From the NCBI GenBank assembly GCA_016699795.1, contig CP065011.1:687318-751317 (forward strand): a stretch of DNA of 64,000 nucleotides. Direction: 5' to 3'. The translations under genes were made by a program, and so were the position numbers. Source of the stretch: Candidatus Moraniibacteriota bacterium (GTDB lineage: Bacteria; Patescibacteriota; Minisyncoccia; Moranbacterales; GCA-2747515). The notes beneath the pieces were generated by a model. That model was not told where the DNA came from, made no database searches, and saw only the letters and a program-made list of their open reading frames with translations. How positions within the stretch are numbered: the first letter of the stretch is position 1; every line of letters starts with the position of its first letter. This document shows positions 23,102 to 64,000 of this stretch, piece after piece.

Positions 23102-24205
23102 ATGCGTTTAGCATGTTTGGTTTCAGGGGGTGTGGACAGCTCTGTAGCTCTGACTCTTGCCAAAGATTCAGGTCATGAAGTTCATGCTTTTTATCTTAAA
23201 ATTTGGCTTGAAGATGAAATGGCATTTCTCGGAGAATGTCCATGGGAAAATGACCTTACTTTCGTTCGTTCAGTTTGTAAAAAACTAAACGTTCCTCTTA
23301 CGATTGTTCCTCTTCAAAAAGAATATCATGATCGAGTTATTTCGTATGCACTTTCTGAGGTTCGAGAAGGGCGAACTCCTAATCCGGATATTATGTGCAA
23401 TTCTTTGATAAAATTTGGAGCATTTCAAGAATGGCTTGAAAAGAATGATACTTCGTTTGAAAAAATTGTTACTGGCCATTATGCCCGTTCAGGAGAATAC
23501 AAAAAAGTTCATGGAGAAACTTTTTCGATTATGAAACTTGCCTGTGATAGAGTAAAAGACCAGACTTATTTTCTCTCTCGACTCACAAAAGAACAACTTA
23601 GGAGAACGTGGTTTCCTTTGGGAGAATATGAAAAATCTAAAGTTCGAGAAATGGCAAAAGAGAAAAACCTCCTTACTTTCGATAGACCAGACTCTCAAGG
23701 TTTATGTTTTTTGGGAAAGATAAGGTATTCAAGTTTTATTAAACATCATCTCGGAACGATGATGGGAGATATTGTGGATATTTCTACAGGAAGGATTCTT
23801 GGAAAACATGAGGGTCACTGGTTTCATACCGTTGGACAACGACACGGATTAGACCTTTCTGGGGGTCCTTGGTATGTAGTGGGGAAGGATATTCAAAAAA
23901 ATAATATTCTTGTTTCTCATCGACTTAAAATGCCTGAAACGGAAAGAGCCTTTTTTGGTGTACGAAATACTTCATGGTTTTTGGACGAAGAAGATCTTCA
24001 AAAAAATTTCTTACAAAAAAAGCTTTTTTGTAAAATTCGACATGGAGAGAAAAGATATCAAGTTATTTTAGAAGGGGTTTCTCAAAATATTTCAGATTTT
24101 TCTGTTCGAATTCTTAAAGAAAAAGAAAGAGGAATTACACCTGGGCAATTTGCAGTTTTTTATTCTGATGATATGTGTTTAGGAAGTGGTGTAATTGTAG
24201 AATAA
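23102..24205 (+). CDS. mnmA: tRNA-specific 2-thiouridylase
   Basis: SGGVDSS PP-loop at N-terminus, conserved catalytic Cys region, length. Confidence 0.9.
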   Translation: MRLACLVSGGVDSSVALTLAKDSGHEVHAFYLKIWLEDEMAFLGECPWENDLTFVRSVCKKLNVPLTIVPLQKEYHDRVISYALSEVREGRTPNPDIMCNSLIKFGAFQEWLEKNDTSFEKIVTGHYARSGEYKKVHGETFSIMKLACDRVKDQTYFLSRLTKEQLRRTWFPLGEYEKSKVREMAKEKNLLTFDRPDSQGLCFLGKIRYSSFIKHHLGTMMGDIVDISTGRILGKHEGHWFHTVGQRHGLDLSGGPWYVVGKDIQKNNILVSHRLKMPETERAFFGVRNTSWFLDEEDLQKNFLQKKLFCKIRHGEKRYQVILEGVSQNISDFSVRILKEKERGITPGQFAVFYSDDMCLGSGVIVE

Positions 24206-24215
24206 AAGAAAAAGA

Positions 24216-24245
24216 GCAATCTTTAAAAAAGATTACTCTTTGTGA
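24216..24245. terminator. possible bidirectional hairpin between mnmA and minus-strand small ORF
   Basis: AATCTTT-AAAA-AAGATT inverted repeat. Confidence 0.25.
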
Positions 24246-24310
24246 ATGAAAGCGTCCTCGAATTGGATAGGATAGAAAGAATGGGAAAAGTTGATACTGG
24301 GAATTAAGTA

Positions 24311-24694
24311 TTAAGAAACCCAGAATATCAAGAGATCCCAGAAAATACTTATAAATCCTAGAAAGGCAGCTGCCCAATATTTTTTTATTAGGACTGCAAA
24401 GCCAGAGAGTATTACAAATAGCAAGGAAAGAACAGCATAAAGCCCAATAGAAGAACTCATTATAAAACCCTCTCTTTGTATTATGAGATCCAAGAAAATA
24501 CTTATAAATCCAAGGAAGGTAGCTGTCCAATACTTCTTTATTAAAGCAGCAAAGCCGGAGAGTATTACAAACAGCAAGGAAAGAACAGCGTAAAGTCCGA
24601 TAGAAGAACTCATTGTAAAACCCTCTCTTTGTGTGAAAAAAAAACATATTCGCCAAATAAAAGCGAACGAATTAGAAAATAAATGGATTTTCAT
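24311..24694 (-). CDS. small membrane protein made of two tandem copies of a 51-aa unit (two predicted TM helices each)
   Basis: Protein repeats QREGF-MSSSIGLYAVLSLLFVILSGFA-LIKKYW-A-FLGFISIF-DL twice; encoded by a 153-bp tandem DNA duplication. Confidence 0.4.
   Translation of the reverse strand: MKIHLFSNSFAFIWRICFFFTQREGFTMSSSIGLYAVLSLLFVILSGFAALIKKYWTATFLGFISIFLDLIIQREGFIMSSSIGLYAVLSLLFVILSGFAVLIKKYWAAAFLGFISIFWDLLIFWVS
24333..24638. repeat. 153-bp tandem direct duplication (2 copies, ~85-90% identical)
   Basis: gagatccc..ataaatcc..cagctg.ccaata..attacaaa.agcaaggaaagaacagc.taaag.cc.atagaagaactcatt.taaaaccctctctttgt repeats with period 153. Confidence 0.8.
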
Positions 24695-27244: not shown

Positions 27245-27316
27245 TGGGGAATCGCCAAGTGGTAAGGCAACGGGTTCTGGTCCCGTCATTCGGGGGTTCG
27301 AATCCCTCTTCCCCAG
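27245..27316 (+). tRNA. tRNA-Gln (anticodon CUG)
   Basis: Cloverleaf: acceptor TGGGGAA/TTCCCCA, D-arm GCCAAGTGGTAAGGC, anticodon stem ACGGG/CCCGT with loop TTCTGGT, T-arm GGGGG-TTCGAAT-CCCTC; close to E. coli tRNA-Gln; CCA not encoded. Confidence 0.9.
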
Positions 27317-27325
27317 CTAAGATAA

Positions 27326-27353
27326 AAATCCCTCCTTTGTGGAGGATTTTTTA
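27326..27353 (+). terminator. rho-independent terminator after tRNA-Gln
   Basis: ATCCCTCC-TTTGT-GGAGGAT followed by TTTTTTATTT. Confidence 0.6.
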
Positions 27354-27354
27354 T

Positions 27355-27493
27355 TTGAGTATGAGAAGGGATTCGAACGGGTGGAAATGAGTCCTCGAAT
27401 GTCGACAGACGCGAATGAATGAGCGTTTGGCGCCACCCCGGACAACGAAACGTCGTTTCGACGGTGAGGCGAAAATCCCTCTTCCCCAGCAAT
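27355..27493. repeat. tRNA-Gln 3'-half fragments: inverted degraded copy (27362-27386) and direct 17-nt copy of the 3' end (27476-27493), plus perfect palindrome CGAAACG-T-CGTTTCG
   Basis: minus strand of 27362-27386 reads CACCCGTTCGAATCCCTTCTCA (cf. tRNA GGGGGTTCGAATCCCTCTTCCCCA); 27476-27493 AATCCCTCTTCCCCAGC identical to tRNA 3' end. Confidence 0.7.
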
Positions 27494-58755: not shown

Positions 58756-60009
58756 ATGGATGAAGAAATTAAACAACAACAAGTATTTAATAAAGGATCT
58801 TTTCTTTTTTCTATTGTTCTTTCGATTCTTTCTGGTATATTGGGCGGTGTTTTCGTTTTACTTTTGGCAAATCCTATAGTAACAAAAGAATCTTTAGAGA
58901 AATCTCCTTTGGAGAATAATAAAGAAATGGAATCATCTAAAACTACGGTTATCGCTGAAGATGATGCTATTATTCAAGTAGTTGAAAAAGTTTCTCCTAG
59001 TGTTGTGAGTATTGTAGTTACGAAAGATCTCTCCCAAATGCAAAGATATTTCAGTAGTCCTTTTGATATGTTTTTTGGAGGAGATCCTTATGCACAAAAA
59101 AATGAAGAAGGTCCTTCCGAAATGCAACAAATAGGAGGCGGTACAGGATTTTTTGTCTCTTCTGAAGGTATGGTGGTAACCAATGCTCATGTAGTTGAAG
59201 ATACATCAGCAACATACACCGTAGTGACACAATCAGGCGATAAATACGAAGCCAAAATATTGGCTACGGATCCTACTCGAGATGTAGCAGTTATTAAAGT
59301 AGAAGGAACAAATTTTCCTGTAGCGGAATTGGGAGATAGTGAAGCTCTTCGTTTAGGTCAAACTGTTGTTGCTATTGGATATTCTCTTGGGGAATTCGCT
59401 AATTCAGTAAGTAAAGGTATTATTTCGGGAACACAAAGAAGTATTTTCGCTGGGTCTTCTCGCGGACAATCAGAACAGCTTAGCAATGTTATTCAGACCG
59501 ATGCCGCAATCAATCCAGGAAATTCCGGAGGACCTCTTTTGAATATTCAGGGGAAAGTTATAGGTGTTAATGTCGCTATGGCACAAGGCGCTGAGAATAT
59601 AGGATTTGCCCTTCCTATTAATTCTGTGCGAAAAGTTATAGATCAAGTTCGTGAAACCGGAAAAATTGTAACACCATTTCTGGGTATTCGTTATCTCATT
59701 ATCAATGAAGAAATTGCCAAAAAAAATAATCTTGAATATAACTATGGAGCGCTTATTATGAGAGGGGAACAACGGTCTGATTTGGCTGTAATGCCTGCTT
59801 CTCCTGCTGATCGCGCAGGTCTTAAAGAAGGGGATGTTATTTTGGAAATTGCGGGTGAGAAAATTACTGAAGAAAAACCTCTAAATTTTCTTATTTCAGA
59901 ACATAGCATTGGAGAAGAAGTAGCTTTTAAAGTTTGGAGCGATGGAGAGATAAAAGATATGACCATTCTCCTTGAAGCTCGAAAAGAAGATACAAAAGAG
60001 AAAAAATAA
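58756..60009 (+). CDS. htrA: HtrA/DegP-family serine protease with PDZ domain
   Basis: TNAHVV (His), D, GNSGGPL (Ser) catalytic triad motifs; C-terminal PDZ. Confidence 0.9.
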   Translation: MDEEIKQQQVFNKGSFLFSIVLSILSGILGGVFVLLLANPIVTKESLEKSPLENNKEMESSKTTVIAEDDAIIQVVEKVSPSVVSIVVTKDLSQMQRYFSSPFDMFFGGDPYAQKNEEGPSEMQQIGGGTGFFVSSEGMVVTNAHVVEDTSATYTVVTQSGDKYEAKILATDPTRDVAVIKVEGTNFPVAELGDSEALRLGQTVVAIGYSLGEFANSVSKGIISGTQRSIFAGSSRGQSEQLSNVIQTDAAINPGNSGGPLLNIQGKVIGVNVAMAQGAENIGFALPINSVRKVIDQVRETGKIVTPFLGIRYLIINEEIAKKNNLEYNYGALIMRGEQRSDLAVMPASPADRAGLKEGDVILEIAGEKITEEKPLNFLISEHSIGEEVAFKVWSDGEIKDMTILLEARKEDTKEKK

Positions 60010-60016
60010 AATAAAT

Positions 60017-60514
60017 ATGGAAGATATAATTGGAAGCCTCCCGTCTTTTTCCGAGTTTCTTACGGGGGATGTTGTCTTGTTCCTTGTTGTTATCGGTGGT
60101 GCTATTGCTTTGAGTATAATTTTTGGAAAGTCTCGCTTTGTTCGTTTTGTGTTGTCTATTTATTTGGCATATGCCTTTTTGGCAGTCTTTCCAAAATCTA
60201 TTCTTATTAAAATTCCTTATGGAGAAGCTCTTATTTTTTTAGGAGCACTTATTCTTCTTGTTTTTTTGGGAAAAAATCTTTTTAACATTTACTATCGTTC
60301 TGAAATTCAGGGATGGATACCCACCTTTTTCTTTGCCTTCTTTGTTTCGGGCTTTCTTTTGGGTATTTTTTTCCGTCTTCTTCCCGGGGATGCCTTCTTT
60401 TGGGATTTCCTATCCTATCGATCAGCTCAATATCTTATTGGTGAATGGACCTTTCTTATTTGGTTTATTGCTCCTTTGATTATTTTAACAATACTTAATA
60501 CGAGAAAATCTTAA
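60017..60514 (+). CDS. small polytopic membrane protein (CvpA-like?)
   Basis: Four TM segments; start set at Met 60017 just after htrA stop. Confidence 0.45.
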   Translation: MEDIIGSLPSFSEFLTGDVVLFLVVIGGAIALSIIFGKSRFVRFVLSIYLAYAFLAVFPKSILIKIPYGEALIFLGALILLVFLGKNLFNIYYRSEIQGWIPTFFFAFFVSGFLLGIFFRLLPGDAFFWDFLSYRSAQYLIGEWTFLIWFIAPLIILTILNTRKS

Positions 60515-60541
60515 TAAAAACTCCTATAAAAAGAGTAGGGT

Positions 60542-60570
60542 TTGACTTAGGTTAATTTCTTCGATATAAT
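60542..60570 (+). promoter_or_regulatory. canonical sigma70 promoter TTGACT-17-TATAAT for tRNA-Lys
   Basis: TTGACT 60542-60547, 17-nt spacer, TATAAT 60565-60570, 24 nt upstream of tRNA. Confidence 0.6.
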
Positions 60571-60594
60571 CGCATACGTATTTTTAGAATTTTT

Positions 60595-60667
60595 GCGCGC
60601 ATAGCTCAGTCGGTAGAGCAGTGGCCTTTTAAGCCAACGGTCGGGGGTTCGAATCCCTCTGCGCGCA
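60595..60667 (+). tRNA. tRNA-Lys (anticodon UUU)
   Basis: Acceptor GCGCGCA/TGCGCGC, D-arm GCTCAGTCGGTAGAGC, anticodon loop CTTTTAA, T-arm GGGGG-TTCGAAT-CCCTC; resembles E. coli tRNA-Lys. Confidence 0.9.
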
Positions 60668-60893
60668 CGAAGTAAGCGCTAAGCATGCAAACTGCTTTGC
60701 ATGCGTGAGGGATGAGAAAGACGGAACGATGTTTCGCATATGTATGTATGCGAAACCGTGAGTCGGGGTCGAGAAATATTTTCTTAAAATATATTCGTGA
60801 CCGAATCCCTCTGCGCGCACGAAGTAAGCGCTAAGCATGCAAACTGCTTTGCATGCGTGAGGGATGAGAAAGACGGAACGATGTTTCGCATGT
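60651..60893 (+). repeat. tandem direct duplication (~90 bp, period 152) containing the last 17 nt of tRNA-Lys plus downstream hairpins
   Basis: gaatccctctgcgcgcacgaagtaagcgctaagcatgcaaactgctttgcatgcgtgagggatgagaaagacggaacgatgtttcgcat occurs at 60651 and again at 60803. Confidence 0.85.
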
Positions 60894-60916
60894 ATGCGAA
60901 ATTTTTTTTGTTTTTT
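60884..60916 (+). terminator. rho-independent terminator at end of second repeat copy
   Basis: TTTCGCAT-GT-ATGCGAAA hairpin followed by TTTTTTTTGTTTTTT. Confidence 0.6.
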
Positions 60917-60980
60917 CCTTCGTACTCAACCTTTTCCCCTGCGAAGGCGGGGAATTATTTGATTCTTTTTCCTTTCCCGT

Positions 60981-61048
60981 CCTTTCGATCGACAAGTCTT
61001 CGAGGAGTGGAGACTTAGTCCGCCTTTGGCGGAAAACTTTCCGGATTT
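60981..61048 (+). repeat. structured repeat family B, copy 1
   Basis: cgacaagtcttcgaggagtggagacttagtccgcctttggcggaaaac ~85% identical to 62560-62630; contains hairpins AAGTCT..AGACTT and TCCGCC-TTTG-GCGGA. Confidence 0.7.
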
Positions 61049-61067
61049 CCTTTTCGTTGTTCGGATT

Positions 61068-61107
61068 CCTCCCCCTTAGAAAAAGGGGGATTGAGGGGGA
61101 TTTTTTT
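61068..61107 (+). terminator. G/C hairpin plus T-run (CCCCCTT-AGAAA-AAGGGGG ..GGGGGATTTTTTT)
   Basis: Inverted repeat followed by 7-T run. Confidence 0.35.
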
Positions 61108-61124
61108 CCGTCTTTGTGAGCATA

Positions 61125-61182
61125 GCGAAGTAATCCAGAAATTCAGATGGACCGCCACGTCGCGGACTCCTCGCGGAGACGG
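61125..61182 (+). repeat. structured repeat family A, copy 1 (core AATCCAGAAATTC.GATGGACCGCCACG-var-CTCGCGGAGACGG)
   Basis: Shares >85% core identity with copies at 61219, 61385, 62761, 62864. Confidence 0.75.
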
Positions 61183-61218
61183 AAAAAGAGTCATTGCGAG
61201 GAGGAGTCTTCGAGTGAA

Positions 61219-61274
61219 GTGGCAATCCAGAAATTCGGATGGACCGCCACGTCGAGGACTCCTCGCGGAATCGG
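61219..61274 (+). repeat. repeat family A, copy 2
   Basis: ggcAATCCAGAAATTCGGATGGACCGCCACGtcgaggactCCTCGCGGAATCGG. Confidence 0.75.
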
Positions 61275-61285
61275 AGATCCAGCAT

Positions 61286-61314
61286 TTCACAAAAAACACA
61301 AAATATTCTATACT
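61286..61314 (+). promoter_or_regulatory. strong sigma70-like promoter TTCACA-17-TATACT (copy 1 of duplicated promoter)
   Basis: Near-consensus -35/-10 with 17-nt spacer; identical architecture duplicated 171 bp downstream. Confidence 0.5.
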
Positions 61315-61384
61315 AAAAAAAGAAAAGAGAGATTTCCATCAAAGGCGAGATGAAACAATCCATTGATCCGTCTTTGCGAGTGTA

Positions 61385-61444
61385 GCGAAGCAATCCAGGA
61401 ATTTCGGATGGACCGCCACGGCTGAGTACAGCCTCGCGGAATCG
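61385..61444 (+). repeat. repeat family A, copy 3 (variable segment forms GGCTG-AGTA-CAGCC hairpin)
   Basis: gcgaagcAATCCAGGAATTTCGGATGGACCGCCACGgctgagtacagcCTCGCGGAATCG. Confidence 0.75.
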
Positions 61445-61456
61445 AAGATCCAGTAT

Positions 61457-61485
61457 TTCACAAAAAACACAAAACATCCTATACT
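61457..61485 (+). promoter_or_regulatory. strong sigma70-like promoter TTCACA-17-TATACT (copy 2), ~60 nt upstream of DUF1566 gene
   Basis: TTCACA 61457-61462, TATACT 61480-61485. Confidence 0.55.
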
Positions 61486-61548
61486 AAAAAAAGAAAAAAG
61501 ATTATTTCACAAACAAAAAAAAGAACATTTATTATACAATAAAATAGT

Positions 61549-62520
61549 ATGATGTTTACGAAAAAAAATACTCCCCCCAAACTACAAAGAACTCTTGATG
61601 GAATACGAAAAGAAAAAAACAATACTTATTCTATAAAAGAAAAAAAAGAAATCTCTCTTTCTTCTTTTTTTTCTTTCCTCTCCAAAAAAAGAAAACTCAC
61701 TTCTACTTTCCTCTTAACCATTCTTATCTTAGGAGGAGTCTCTTTTTTCTTTTCAAAAAATATAAAAGGAGCAACGTATGGATGGATTCAAAGTAGTTGG
61801 ATAGGAGGAGTAACAGTAAATACTGCTACACATACCAATAATCAAGAAAACTGGACGGAGTATGCTTCCAAAGATTCTAATATTCAAGCAGATGCAAGTG
61901 GTGTAACGATTACGGGGACGAATAATAGTTGGGTAGAGACGAGTGATGCGGACTTTAACGATGGATCATTTGCCCAAACCTATACAACGGGAAATGCTAT
62001 TTATACCCAAAAACCTTTTGGTGCTACTTGCACTACGAATGCACAATGCTCTAATGGAGGGGATGAGGGAACTACTGGGGGACTCTGCTCAGGAGGAATA
62101 TGTACCGATCCCTGGCAGACAGGACCATGTGCTGGTATCTATGTTCATGCCTACAATGCATCGGGAACGTATATGTGGAAAACAACACAAACTAACTGTG
62201 ATACTCCTCAGTGCGGACTCAATGGAGGACAAAATGATGATAATCTCGTCGCCGATAATTCCGTAGATTTCTCACTGTACCCTGCGCGAAATGCATGTAA
62301 GAATATGGGAGAAGGAGGAAGGCTTCCTACTCTTTTAGAGTTTCAGTGTATTTATACCAACCGAGCTGTTTATGATGACTATGGTGGACTTTCGACTTAT
62401 CATTGGTTAAACACAGAAAATTCTACTACGTACGCACACTATTTTGACAGTACTGTTGCTCGTGGAGGAGTTTATCATAAGACGAACAGCTATTCCGTCA
62501 GGTGTGTTCGTGGACAATGA
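61549..62520 (+). CDS. secreted DUF1566 / Lcl C-terminal (Fibrobacter major paralogous, C-type-lectin-fold) domain protein with Cys/Gly-rich middle
   Basis: N-terminal TM/signal anchor; C-terminus GGRLPTLLEF..YHWLNTE..YSVRCVRGQ matches DUF1566 hallmarks (RLPT..EL and terminal VRCVR). Confidence 0.65.
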   Translation: MMFTKKNTPPKLQRTLDGIRKEKNNTYSIKEKKEISLSSFFSFLSKKRKLTSTFLLTILILGGVSFFFSKNIKGATYGWIQSSWIGGVTVNTATHTNNQENWTEYASKDSNIQADASGVTITGTNNSWVETSDADFNDGSFAQTYTTGNAIYTQKPFGATCTTNAQCSNGGDEGTTGGLCSGGICTDPWQTGPCAGIYVHAYNASGTYMWKTTQTNCDTPQCGLNGGQNDDNLVADNSVDFSLYPARNACKNMGEGGRLPTLLEFQCIYTNRAVYDDYGGLSTYHWLNTENSTTYAHYFDSTVARGGVYHKTNSYSVRCVRGQ

Positions 62521-62559
62521 TCCCCTCTCTTTTTTTCGACCGACAAACTTTCTTCCCTT

Positions 62560-62630
62560 CGTCTTTTCGACCGACGAGTCTTCGAGGAGTGGAGATTTGG
62601 TCCGCCTTTAGCGAAAAACTCTCAGGATTT
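62560..62630 (+). repeat. structured repeat family B, copy 2
   Basis: cgaccgacgagtcttcgaggagtggagatttggtccgcctttagcgaaaaac; partial third copy ttcgaccgacaaac at 62536. Confidence 0.7.
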
Positions 62631-62760
62631 TTTTCTTTTTCCCCGTGAAGACGGGGATCCAGTATTAAAGGAGTACAGAAGAGAAATTTCTCCACTCGTT
62701 CGCGCTGCTCACTCGGTCGAAAAGACGGAAATCCGAGTCATTGCGATCCCGCCGTGGCGG

Positions 62761-62828
62761 GAGAAGCAATCCAGGAATTCGGATGGACCGCCACGCTTTC
62801 TCGAAGACTCGAAATCTCGCGGAGACGG
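62761..62828 (+). repeat. repeat family A, copy 4
   Basis: gagaagcAATCCAGGAATTCGGATGGACCGCCACGctttctcgaagactcgaaatCTCGCGGAGACGG. Confidence 0.75.
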
Positions 62829-62863
62829 AAAATGCGTCATTGCGAGGAGCGAGTCCGCGAAGT

Positions 62864-62919
62864 GACGAAGCAATCCAGAGTTAATTTCTGGACCGCTTCG
62901 CAGAGCCTCGCGGAGACGG
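62864..62919 (+). repeat. repeat family A, copy 5 (diverged core)
   Basis: gacgaagcAATCCAGagttaatttcTGGACCGCttcgcagagcCTCGCGGAGACGG. Confidence 0.6.
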
Positions 62920-62989
62920 AGTTGAAGATATGTAAAGATGACAAAAAACTTTGGAAATATTCTTTTTTCTATGGTATGCTGTATCTTGT

Positions 62990-64000
62990 ATGAATAGAGT
63001 AAAACAAAAGAAACAGAGAACCTTCTTTTGGATGTATGCGATCGTTTTTTCTTTCGCTTGTTTTGGTATGTTCTCGGGTGAAGTGAGGGCGTATACTATC
63101 AAAACATCGTACACTTCTTCCGTACAAGAATACCCCGCCTCCACGCGATTTGGCACACTCACCTGGACCGATACCTTTACAGGAAATAATCCTGCAACAT
63201 TGGGTTCCAATACCACTATAGAAGTTCGTGGAGGTAACATCCTCGTACCTGATGGATCATGGACTGCGTGGGTAAATATTTCCAAAGGAGGAAGTCTTTC
63301 TCCTATCGATTGGAATCGTTGGGTACAGTATCGAATAAACTTTGACTATGAAGATCCCAATGCCGTCCCCGGAGTTTCCGACGTAACGATTTCTACGTAT
63401 TCGGGAATGCTTACGTCTTCTATTTATGATACAAAAAATTTTACCACGAGAGTGAAATCGCTTTCTTGGGATGAGGTACTTCCCGGTGGAGGCGCAAATG
63501 CTATTTTTCAGATTCGTACTTCACCCAACAATGTGACATGGAGTCCATGGTGCGGACCAGATAATGGCACGTCAGGAACATGTAATAGTTCCGCATGGTT
63601 TGGAGATTCTTCGGGTGCGGAGAATGTAGAAACATTGTTTAGTGGAGTGGATGTATCGGGAATTCAACGAAATCGATATATTCAGTGTCGTTTGGCTCTT
63701 TTTTCCGATGGAGCGAATATCCCGAGCGTTTCTCGTATCTTGGTAGATTATGAAAATGATGAGATGCTTCCTCCTTCTTGGTTAGGAACAGAGAAACTCT
63801 ATAGGGGATCTGTCAAAGACACCGGAGGACCTTCTCGTTTTTCCTCTCTTTCTTTTACGGCGATTCCTTCAGGAAATGCTACGATAAAAATGTTTCTTCG
63901 AGCAGGAAACGTACCAACTCCTGATAATTCATGGAGTGAATTTGTAGAAGTCTCTAATGGAGGATCAGCAGATTCTATCTCGGGCAATCGCTATGTTCAA
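62990..64000 (+). CDS. secreted hypothetical protein, 3'-partial (runs off window end); not in ORF track because no stop within window
   Basis: ATG at 62990, open frame for 337 codons to position 64000; MNRVKQKKQRTFFWMYAIVFSFACFGMFSGEVRA signal peptide; Thr/Ser/Asn/Trp-rich. Confidence 0.6.
   Translation, partial: MNRVKQKKQRTFFWMYAIVFSFACFGMFSGEVRAYTIKTSYTSSVQEYPASTRFGTLTWTDTFTGNNPATLGSNTTIEVRGGNILVPDGSWTAWVNISKGGSLSPIDWNRWVQYRINFDYEDPNAVPGVSDVTISTYSGMLTSSIYDTKNFTTRVKSLSWDEVLPGGGANAIFQIRTSPNNVTWSPWCGPDNGTSGTCNSSAWFGDSSGAENVETLFSGVDVSGIQRNRYIQCRLALFSDGANIPSVSRILVDYENDEMLPPSWLGTEKLYRGSVKDTGGPSRFSSLSFTAIPSGNATIKMFLRAGNVPTPDNSWSEFVEVSNGGSADSISGNRYVQ

Follow-up and report, generated by a model that had tools for sequence, protein, structure and literature searches.

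Behind a tRNA-Lys(UUU) gene of Candidatus Moraniibacteriota bacterium lies a short, structured unit that ends in a second copy of the tRNA's own 3' end, which we call its echo. The gene is part of a stretch of 64,000 nucleotides from contig CP065011.1 (assembly GCA_016699795.1, positions 687,318 to 751,317), referred to below as the window. Units of the same design, 152 bp long at the window and 83-225 bp across modules elsewhere, stand behind other tRNA genes and in other Patescibacteria. The reading that we favour, with belief and doubt in about equal measure, is that the locus is a tRNA-anchored, non-autonomous insertion and tandem-repeat element, hairpin-rich and gene-less. The units contain two kinds of spacer, S1 and S2, the latter found behind tRNA-Lys(UUU); that S1 and S2 are related, and make up one family of tRNA-anchored elements in Patescibacteria, is to us an evenly balanced proposition.

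A duplicated tRNA 3' end around a distinct spacer

A repeat search of the window finds a direct repeat of 90 nt at tRNA-Lys(UUU), its two copies 100% identical and spaced 152 bp apart (Table 1). The repeat begins at C56, in the T-loop, so that its tRNA part runs from C56 to the discriminator A73, and a gapped alignment lengthens it to 106/100 nt with a single 6-nt indel that falls in a hairpin loop. A reading made earlier from the letters of the window, the sequence-only reading, had described this duplicated tRNA-Lys 3' end with about 60 bp between the copies; both points hold, with a start one base earlier than it gave and a gap of 62 nt. The window has no further occurrence of the tRNA 18-mer or of a 48-mer taken from the trailer, blastn of the duplicated region against the window returns no further copy, and two matches appeared in 0 of 100 shuffles. 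ARAGORN and Rfam find no second tRNA at the duplicated locus. The spacer as a decayed second tRNA-Lys was considered and rejected, its global alignment to the first 55 nt of the tRNA scoring below the shuffle mean (z = -0.2, -0.95), as was a small open reading frame (ORF) of 40 aa at 60712-60834, which we regard as non-coding: it starts in a conserved block, its frame is not kept in the related locus L122, and the hairpins covary. Look-ups of small ORFs spanning the module gave no match.

The tRNA, the trailer, the 62-nt spacer and the second copy look like one transcription unit, because of where the promoter-like and terminator-like sequences lie. The only good terminator-like hairpin with a T8 run comes from the second copy; the same hairpin in the first copy has a longer loop and no T-run. 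The region from tRNA-Lys through the module folds more stably than shuffled sequences (z = -4.4), and its minimum-free-energy prediction allows the 5' acceptor strand to pair with the distal echo.

Could the locus be a plain duplication, made when replication slipped over the tRNA 3' end and terminator region, with no element involved? The two copies are identical and 152 bp apart, the second supplies the terminator, and the hp2 loops differ by an (ATGT)-type 6-nt indel of the kind typical of slippage. We nevertheless think this improbable, as slippage should leave two full adjacent copies, whereas only 90-106 of the 152 nt are repeated and nothing in the locus could have given rise to the 62-nt spacer, which occurs once in the window and bears no relation to the tRNA. 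The spacer is, moreover, homologous to sequence in other genomes, other tRNAs carry modules of this design around a different conserved spacer, and in L118/L091 and L012 the flank of the distal copy, with its CCA, is unlike that of the proximal copy.

An artefact of assembling or polishing a long-read metagenome-assembled genome (MAG) is the explanation to which we give least weight, as barely credible. Polishing can homogenise near-identical repeats, the identity is perfect over 90 nt, and a short-read (Logan) contig of the same strain (L001/L003) stops at window position 60631, inside tRNA-Lys, and therefore gives no independent view of the duplication in that strain. That break, however, precedes the repeat and is explained by tRNA sequence common to members of the community, and the same architecture of tRNA, spacer and echo is present in independent JGI, ENA and NCBI assemblies. 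Short-read contigs of two genomes (L001/L003, and L243) stop inside or at the tRNA-Lys that precedes an echo array; modules of this kind would therefore be systematically missing or collapsed in short-read assemblies.

Table 1. Features of the two tRNA-anchored modules in the window.
Feature	Position	Strand	Remarks
Sigma-70-like promoter TTGACT-17-TATAAT	60542-60570	+	Upstream of tRNA-Lys; 11/12 consensus matches; putative, by consensus match only
tRNA-Lys(UUU)	60595-60667 (end 60667/8)	+	Intact, without encoded CCA; ARAGORN; Rfam tRNA 73.8 bits
Repeat copy R1	60650-60739	+	18 nt of tRNA (60650-60667) and 72 nt of trailer; to 60755 with one indel
Hairpin hp1	60683-60704	+	GCATGCAAA-CTGC-TTTGCATGC; structure kept in relatives via compensatory changes
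Unpaired conserved block CGTGAGGGATGAGAAAGACGGAACGATG	60704-60731	+	Includes GAGGGAT (60707-60713), complement of echo ATCCCTC
Hairpin hp2, long-loop form	60731-60756	+	No T-run after hairpin
Spacer between copies, 62 nt	60740-60801	+	Holds conserved block CCGTGAGTCGGGG (60756-60768) and hairpin hp3 (60767-60802)
Repeat copy R2, partial second unit	60802-60891	+	Reaches 60901 with one indel
Echo of last 18 nt of tRNA-Lys (C56 to A73)	60802-60819	+	Preceded by GAC instead of GTT
Hairpin hp2, short-loop form, and T8	60883-60909	+	Putative intrinsic terminator, end of tRNA-Lys transcription unit
tRNA-Gln(CUG)	27245-27316	+	Carries second module of the same kind in the window
S1 element	27368-27473	+	Starts GGGATTCGAAC; helices P1 and P2; just after tRNA-Gln terminator hairpin (about 27327-27352)
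Echo of last 17 nt of tRNA-Gln, AATCCCTCTTCCCCAGC	27474-27490	+	173 nt after original

The S2 family varies in copy number at one tRNA gene

The informative relatives were reached only by a profile search with the membrane protein that adjoins tRNA-Lys. S2, the spacer family of the window, is homologous in L122 and L242 and partly so in L251, whose hybrid module shares hp1 and the GAGTGAC junction with it. Behind the syntenic tRNA-Lys, other Moraniibacteriota-like assemblies carry 0, 1, ~1.5 and 2.9 tandem copies, and the window ~1.6 copies of its 152-bp unit. Relatives that all shared one unvarying duplication had been named by the sequence-only reading as the outcome that would speak for a stable terminator duplication, and this is not the pattern observed; the empty site that it proposed looking for exists in L250, where 94 nt separate tRNA-Lys from the tRNA-Glu behind it and neither S2 nor an echo is present. 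In L242, whose adjoining membrane protein is 80% identical to that of L250, Tandem Repeats Finder reports 2.9 tandem S2 units of 192 nt, starting TCGAATCCC in the T-loop, and these are followed by 3.2 units of a 133-nt S1(Glu). L122 and L251 have one unit plus a fraction, the L251 module (NCBI Moranbacteria) being a single hybrid unit.

In each assembly the echo reproduces the 3' end of that genome's own tRNA: TGCGCGCA in the window and L122, TGCACCCA in L242 and TGCGCCCA in L251. The last, partial unit of the array is the most diverged one in L242 and L122, which fits arrays shaped by unequal exchange; the two copies of the window are identical. Between the window and L122, S2 is 68% identical, compared with only 36% for the adjoining membrane protein.

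At the junction of the S2 and S1(Glu) arrays in L242 (6380-6960), the tRNA-Glu that is present in L250 and L122 is gone but for its last 4 nt (..GAGC, GGTA, CGAAGTAAC..), suggesting that a tRNA gene can be lost when arrays recombine with each other. L002, with a neighbouring protein 74% identical at the amino acid level, has kept the upstream genes and has no tRNA-Lys at the site.

The S1 family recurs behind several tRNA isotypes

The second module of the window stands behind tRNA-Gln(CUG) and contains S1. The same family occurs behind tRNA-Glu and tRNA-Lys(CUU) elsewhere, each time with the cognate echo, and its known sites are the window tRNA-Gln, the L122 tRNA-Glu, L012, L022, L046, L242 and L250. 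In L122, tRNA-Glu is the gene after tRNA-Lys, and its own last 15 nt return 160 nt later. At its start S1 has GGGATTCGAA, which repeats in inverted form the T-loop and the 3' strand of the T-stem and which we call the anti-echo, and S1 loci have an intrinsic terminator between the tRNA and the element. A divergent, S1-like module with its own echo follows tRNA-Arg in L019; it is outside the S1 alignment and is not matched by the S1-core hidden Markov model (HMM), and its start, GGACTCGAA, is adapted to the T-loop TTCGAGT.

S1 is not a fixed companion of its tRNA genes. L244-246 have tRNA-Gln(CUG) without S1, although they share with the window only a membrane-protein neighbour at ~44% amino acid identity. 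L125/L126 (adjacent protein 51% identical at the amino acid level) have no tRNA-Gln at the orthologous site. Among 48 tRNAs surveyed in low-GC loci, echoes were seen only for Lys, Gln, Glu and Arg genes, in a sample where Lys was searched by design and Gln, Glu and Arg turned up as neighbours; the echo-bearing loci are the window, L012, L019, L022, L046, L118, L122, L242, L250 and L251. Most tRNAs in these same loci have no echo, and we accordingly discarded a universal feature of tRNA maturation as a candidate. The four isotypes have a common T-arm, GGGGGTTCGA(A/G)TCCC.

Both spacers fold, and their helices are maintained

The helices of S1 and S2 are maintained by compensatory change. In S1 the proposed structure (P0, P1 and P2) has 90.5% of its cells paired, with 8 two-sided changes, all of them in P1 and P2, against at most 1 in slid controls; for hairpins hp1 and hp3 of S2 the figures are 82% paired and 15 compensatory pairs, with slid controls reaching no more than 5. 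These counts come from few sequences (4-5), and the structures were derived in part from the same sequences. The unpaired blocks of S2, CGTGAGGRATGAGAA... and CCGYGAG..., are conserved as well. P0, in which the echo would pair in part with the anti-echo, is a proposal and is absent from the unconstrained consensus fold. In all loci examined, nhmmer matches to the S1 and S2 cores lie solely directly downstream of tRNA genes; S1 is bracketed by the inverted pair of anti-echo and echo, and the flanking direct repeat varies from 12 to 106 nt.

Against Rfam 15 only the tRNA reaches threshold, and nothing credible appears for S1 or S2 at E<=10. Transfer-messenger RNA (with its GGAUUCGA... motif), the hammerhead ribozyme (GAUGAG...CGAAAC), the signal recognition particle RNA and RNase P were each considered and set aside, their cores not fitting by eye and Rfam giving none at E<=10.

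Conserved folding invites the main rival explanation, unlikely in our judgement yet deserving real weight: that the module is a structured host RNA, co-transcribed with the tRNA and freed by 3' processing, whose 3' end mimics the 3' strands of the cognate T-arm and acceptor. Such an RNA could, for example, be a decoy, or compete for the factors that recognise the acceptor and T-arm, and selection would then keep the duplication identical. The covarying hairpins and strongly conserved unpaired blocks agree with this, as do the better conservation of S2 than of the neighbouring protein gene, and a promoter and terminator that bracket a stably folding tRNA and module. In the S2 assemblies and in L251 the echo follows the changes of the cognate acceptor stem, and the anti-echo, complementary to the T-loop and to the 3' strand of the T-stem, is adapted in the L019 tRNA-Arg module. 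The covariation, the anti-echo and this tracking suit the host RNA no less than they suit the favoured reading. Yet the module is dispensable, missing at tRNA-Lys in L250 and at tRNA-Gln in L244-246; most tRNAs have none; its copy number ranges from 0 to 3 and its distribution is sporadic; the S1 loci carry an intrinsic terminator ahead of the element; and no Rfam family matches. Dispensability in close relatives, the sporadic distribution and the terminators before S1 speak against an essential RNA role.

Echoes stay close to their tRNA genes

A search with the 18-mer of 596 Gb of species-representative genomes gave 69 matches, mostly chance occurrences in high-GC coding DNA or ordinary tRNA genes. 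Among them, tRNA-Lys(CUU) is followed by a second copy 173 nt later in L022 (Patescibacteria) and 163 nt later in L046, tRNA-Lys of L019 by a fragment 137 nt downstream (start to start), and the L012 tRNA by a 12-nt copy plus CCA at 224 nt. A scan of JGI metagenomes, aimed at non-tRNA copies only (not T at position -2), added L122, with one extra copy at 181 nt, and L113/L118/L091, with a 99-nt tandem array, among low-GC contigs. The eight low-GC echo copies from the genome and metagenome scans and a mismatch search all lie within ~230 nt of a tRNA.

One arrangement is common to L118/L091, L012 and the L019 tRNA-Arg module, in which a proximal tRNA copy without CCA is followed by the element and then by a distal copy with CCA and a different flank. 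This asymmetry would be expected had inserted DNA supplied a new 3' end and displaced the native one downstream, an outcome that simple tandem duplication cannot yield.

Some echo units are built differently, with a split T-arm (L118 5326-5542, L113, L091 1-125 and L069/L030): the 5' strand of the T-stem and TT(CG) come first, then one or two hairpins, then CGAAT with the 3' strands of T-stem and acceptor, as in GGTCGGGGGTT, a 22-nt hairpin, an 18-nt hairpin and CGAATCCCTC. The insertion point falls between positions 55 and 56 and is identical in unrelated spacer types, and L030 and L069, MAGs labelled Bdellovibrionales, have a short, 83-nt version. In L019 (5553-5765, minus strand) the echo behind tRNA-Lys(CUU), CGAATCCCTCTGCGCGCA, is of the generic Patescibacteria type; the 3' end of the resident tRNA, CGAATCCTCCTGCGCCCA, is consistent with its own 5' strand. 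The echo is thus foreign to the tRNA that it follows, unlike all other cases, because the resident end differs from it and yet is self-consistent. A contig end of an Agrococcus MAG (L007, 1-90) has a 14-nt inverted repeat of the 18-mer region (CGAATCCCTCTGCG...CGCAGAGGGATTCG) and is probably a palindromic contig-end artefact.

No machinery beside the proposed element, and how it might move

Where is the enzyme that would insert such a unit? Pfam searches of window ORFs (28 scanned; 41 listed, at least 170 aa) and Pfam tables for ~48.5-60.5 kb contain no integrase, recombinase or transposase, in keeping with the sequence-only reading's statement that the window holds no integrase; what they do contain is housekeeping genes such as TGT, MnmA, LepA, HtrA and glycosyltransferases. 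That reading had also pointed to nearby recombinase genes as worth seeking, and none was found within 4 kb on either side of the modules in L242, L244, L250 and L251; those flanks, like the window, hold no effector or transposase gene, and the neighbour tables of L001/L003 show no recombinase match in Pfam. As no recombinase is encoded beside it, the element must be non-autonomous. The 18-mer, the junction and the spacer are all absent from the 2.9 million viral contigs of IMG/VR, and blastn of the spacers against INPHARED phages and PLSDB plasmids found no match. A phage or plasmid origin was rejected, the 114 matches to the 3'-end pattern of S1 in IMG/VR also all falling in one phage coding region or arising by chance.

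The sequence-only reading had taken the duplication for an attachment-site (att) footprint of integration, left either by an element since lost or at the left boundary of the repeat island that follows. The footprint itself survives in part: the repeat spans the tRNA from its T-loop to its 3' end, L250 offers an empty site, the content between copies varies, and the CCA asymmetry points the same way. Its two proposed origins do not. For a classical att scar, a phage, integrative and conjugative element (ICE) or island with an integrase would have to have lost all but 62 bp, or the left border of the island would have to lie at the second copy, and we consider this improbable, even though tRNA fragments are a known outcome of the integration of 9-23 kb elements (10.1101/2022.07.05.498093) and GC content climbs downstream of tRNA-Lys. 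The supposed remnant, spacer and trailer together, is a conserved structured unit that distant relatives have in common (L122, L242 and, in part, L251) and that is tandemly amplified in L242; the low-GC echo copies are never kilobases from their tRNA, and the viral contigs lack the 18-mer. At the other end, the window holds no third echo copy and no integrase, and the island has different, unrelated repeats, no echo among them, which flank secreted-protein genes.

Nor do we think much of the idea that the unit is an RNA-guided homing module, with the spacer as guide scaffold, the echo as a 3' guide to the tRNA gene and an effector encoded elsewhere; we regard this as very improbable. Its attractions are a structured scaffold followed by 12-19 nt identical to the tRNA, the occurrence of one S1 scaffold with 'guides' for Gln, Glu and Lys and of an S1-like one for Arg, and a GTT, the T-rich motif of the T-loop, that precedes the target and not the echo. 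Against it, no effector or transposase gene lies nearby in the window or the flanks of the related loci, target and echo lie anywhere from 81 to 212 nt apart, the start of the echo varies among C56, A58 and C62, the identity often runs far beyond guide length into the trailer, and the proposed P0 would pair the echo in part with the anti-echo.

On the favoured reading of a tRNA-anchored insertion and tandem-repeat element, the register begins at C56, so the tRNA takes its working 3' end from the opening 18 nt of the first unit and each further unit starts with an echo. The boundary and the CCA asymmetry suggest that the element would enter by recombination within the segment from T-loop to discriminator, supplying its own copy of that segment; the tRNA would stay intact and the displaced native 3' end would become the distal echo. 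Recombination between the echo and trailer repeats may then add or remove whole units and homogenise them. The variation itself is observed, and we propose expansion, contraction and homogenisation because copy number spans 0-2.9, internal units are identical and the units at the edge have diverged. The positions of the promoter and of the last unit's terminator are compatible with the whole array being transcribed together with the tRNA. The hairpins might be kept as DNA or RNA structures that a machinery of recombination or mobilisation requires, or because the fold of the trailer RNA has to stay apart from the tRNA. An excised circle would have a junction joining the spacer end ...CGTGAC to CGAATCCC, with no tRNA 5' part upstream.

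Several observations weigh against this reading. No recombinase, transposase or ORF is linked to the element in the window or the scans of related loci, and no circular, phage or plasmid form was found in IMG/VR, INPHARED or PLSDB; with no free form found, mobility is inferred only from distribution. A trans-acting, sequence-specific integrase sits uneasily with an S1 scaffold found at three to four tRNA isotypes. Identity that runs far past the tRNA into the trailer or terminator, as in the window, L022, L046 and L242, is not what a simple attP x attB event would produce, and it calls for later homogenisation. Arrays end in fractional units, the L019 echo differs from the resident tRNA-Lys at 3 of 18 positions, and the absence in L250 could be a precise loss rather than a site never entered. 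Covariation and block conservation, finally, are equally expected of an RNA that benefits its host.

Relation to known elements and RNAs

Two kinds of mobile DNA come closest. Integrative elements that target tRNA genes (prophages, ICEs and islands) share with the modules the direct repeat from T-loop to 3' end, the intact proximal tRNA, the distal native flank with CCA in several relatives, the empty site and possible tandem accretion. They differ in that the unit here is ~80-225 bp, with no integrase or ORF and no kilobase-sized example seen, that identity extends into the trailer and terminator, that the spacer is a conserved hairpin structure, and that a spacer family can serve three to four isotypes. 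Repetitive extragenic palindromic (REP) sequences, with their composite forms (bacterial interspersed mosaic elements, BIMEs, and REPINs), and miniature inverted-repeat transposable elements (MITEs) are likewise gene-less and non-autonomous, with hairpins kept by compensatory change, positions after genes or terminators and several copies per genome in variable or tandem number. Here, by contrast, the copies stand strictly behind tRNA genes, each ends in the 3' end of the neighbouring tRNA, an ordinary short target-site duplication is missing, and no REP-associated tyrosine transposase (RAYT) or other transposase was seen. The module thus works like an att-flanked tRNA insertion, looks like a REP or MITE repeat and fails the defining features of both, because it has no integrase or episomal form on the one hand and no ordinary target-site duplication or dispersed copies on the other.

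The islands of Prochlorococcus (tycheposons) are reported to include degenerate or satellite elements flanked by partial tRNA repeats (10.1101/2020.12.28.424599). The likeness to the present case would be that, in a streamlined genome without classical mobile elements, partial tRNA repeats testify to repeated integration at tRNA genes. Tycheposons are reportedly kilobases long, with cargo and integrase-type genes, unlike the modules here.

Among RNAs, guides that home on tRNA genes include the delocalised CRISPR RNA of type V-K CRISPR-associated transposons, and the omega-RNA of TnpB and IscB has its guide at the right end of the element. The likeness would lie in a structured scaffold followed by a stretch identical to the segment from T-loop to 3' end, with GTT before the target; the modules differ in having no effector or transposase genes, variable spacing and identity that exceeds guide length. 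RNAs from tRNA 3' trailers, such as 3'ETS-leuZ of E. coli, from a 3' external transcribed spacer (3'ETS), may offer an analogy as structured RNAs of the 3' external spacer whose 5' end would be made by tRNA 3' processing; unlike the modules, they are not known to have a copy of the tRNA 3' end, tandem amplification or presence/absence polymorphism.

A literature search found only kilobase-scale cases of tRNA fragments and nothing on such modules in Patescibacteria, which is not proof of novelty. We put forward as a tentative idea, one that we doubt more than we believe, that S1 and S2 represent an undescribed class of tRNA-anchored 'echo elements' in Patescibacteria, autonomous in neither coding nor recombination, either integrative and tandem elements that use the T-arm as recombination site or arrays of tRNA and small RNA. 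Each unit would then possibly be a structured RNA or DNA module whose end imitates the host tRNA's T-arm and acceptor 3' strand; as arrays, equally speculatively, the units might be released by tRNA processing and act as tRNA 3'-end mimics or guides. If mobile, they would be among the smallest tRNA-targeted elements known and would need trans-acting machinery in ~1-Mb genomes; if RNAs, they would be natural tRNA-linked RNA arrays with a mimic of the tRNA acceptor end. S1 and S2 provide a concrete, searchable sequence family for testing both ideas. There is a practical side as well. A fragment of a tRNA 3' end beside a tRNA gene is routinely read as the border of an island and is used by island finders to delimit elements, and such fragments are a documented source of false tRNA calls (10.1101/2022.07.05.498093); in bacteria of the candidate phyla radiation the same signature can mark a conserved, structured, gene-less unit of 100-200 bp.

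Other features of the window

The island downstream of tRNA-Lys consists of GC-rich nested palindromic repeats at 60978-61500 and 62560-62940, in 2-5 copies (for example AATCCAGRAATTCGGATGGACCGCCACG and CTCGCGGAGACGGAAAA..GTCATTGCGAGGAG), which within the window are confined to that region. Duplicated promoter-like TTCACA-17-TATACT sites lie upstream of two secreted-protein genes of the island (61549-62520 and from 62993 onward) that have no Pfam matches. G+C content, ~0.33-0.37 over most of the window, rises to 0.39-0.445 in 60001-64000, coinciding with the GC-rich repeats and the secreted-protein genes. A link between the module and the island was considered and dropped: the repeat families differ, and the only identity, 16 nt (62845-62860) shared with an S1 copy of L242 at E = 0.006, is too weak.

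On the minus strand at 24135-24694, two overlapping ORFs carry a duplicated peptide segment (..REGFTMSSSIGLYAVLSLLFVILSGFA.. twice), which points to a tandem DNA duplication of ~150 bp between the MnmA-like gene and prfB.

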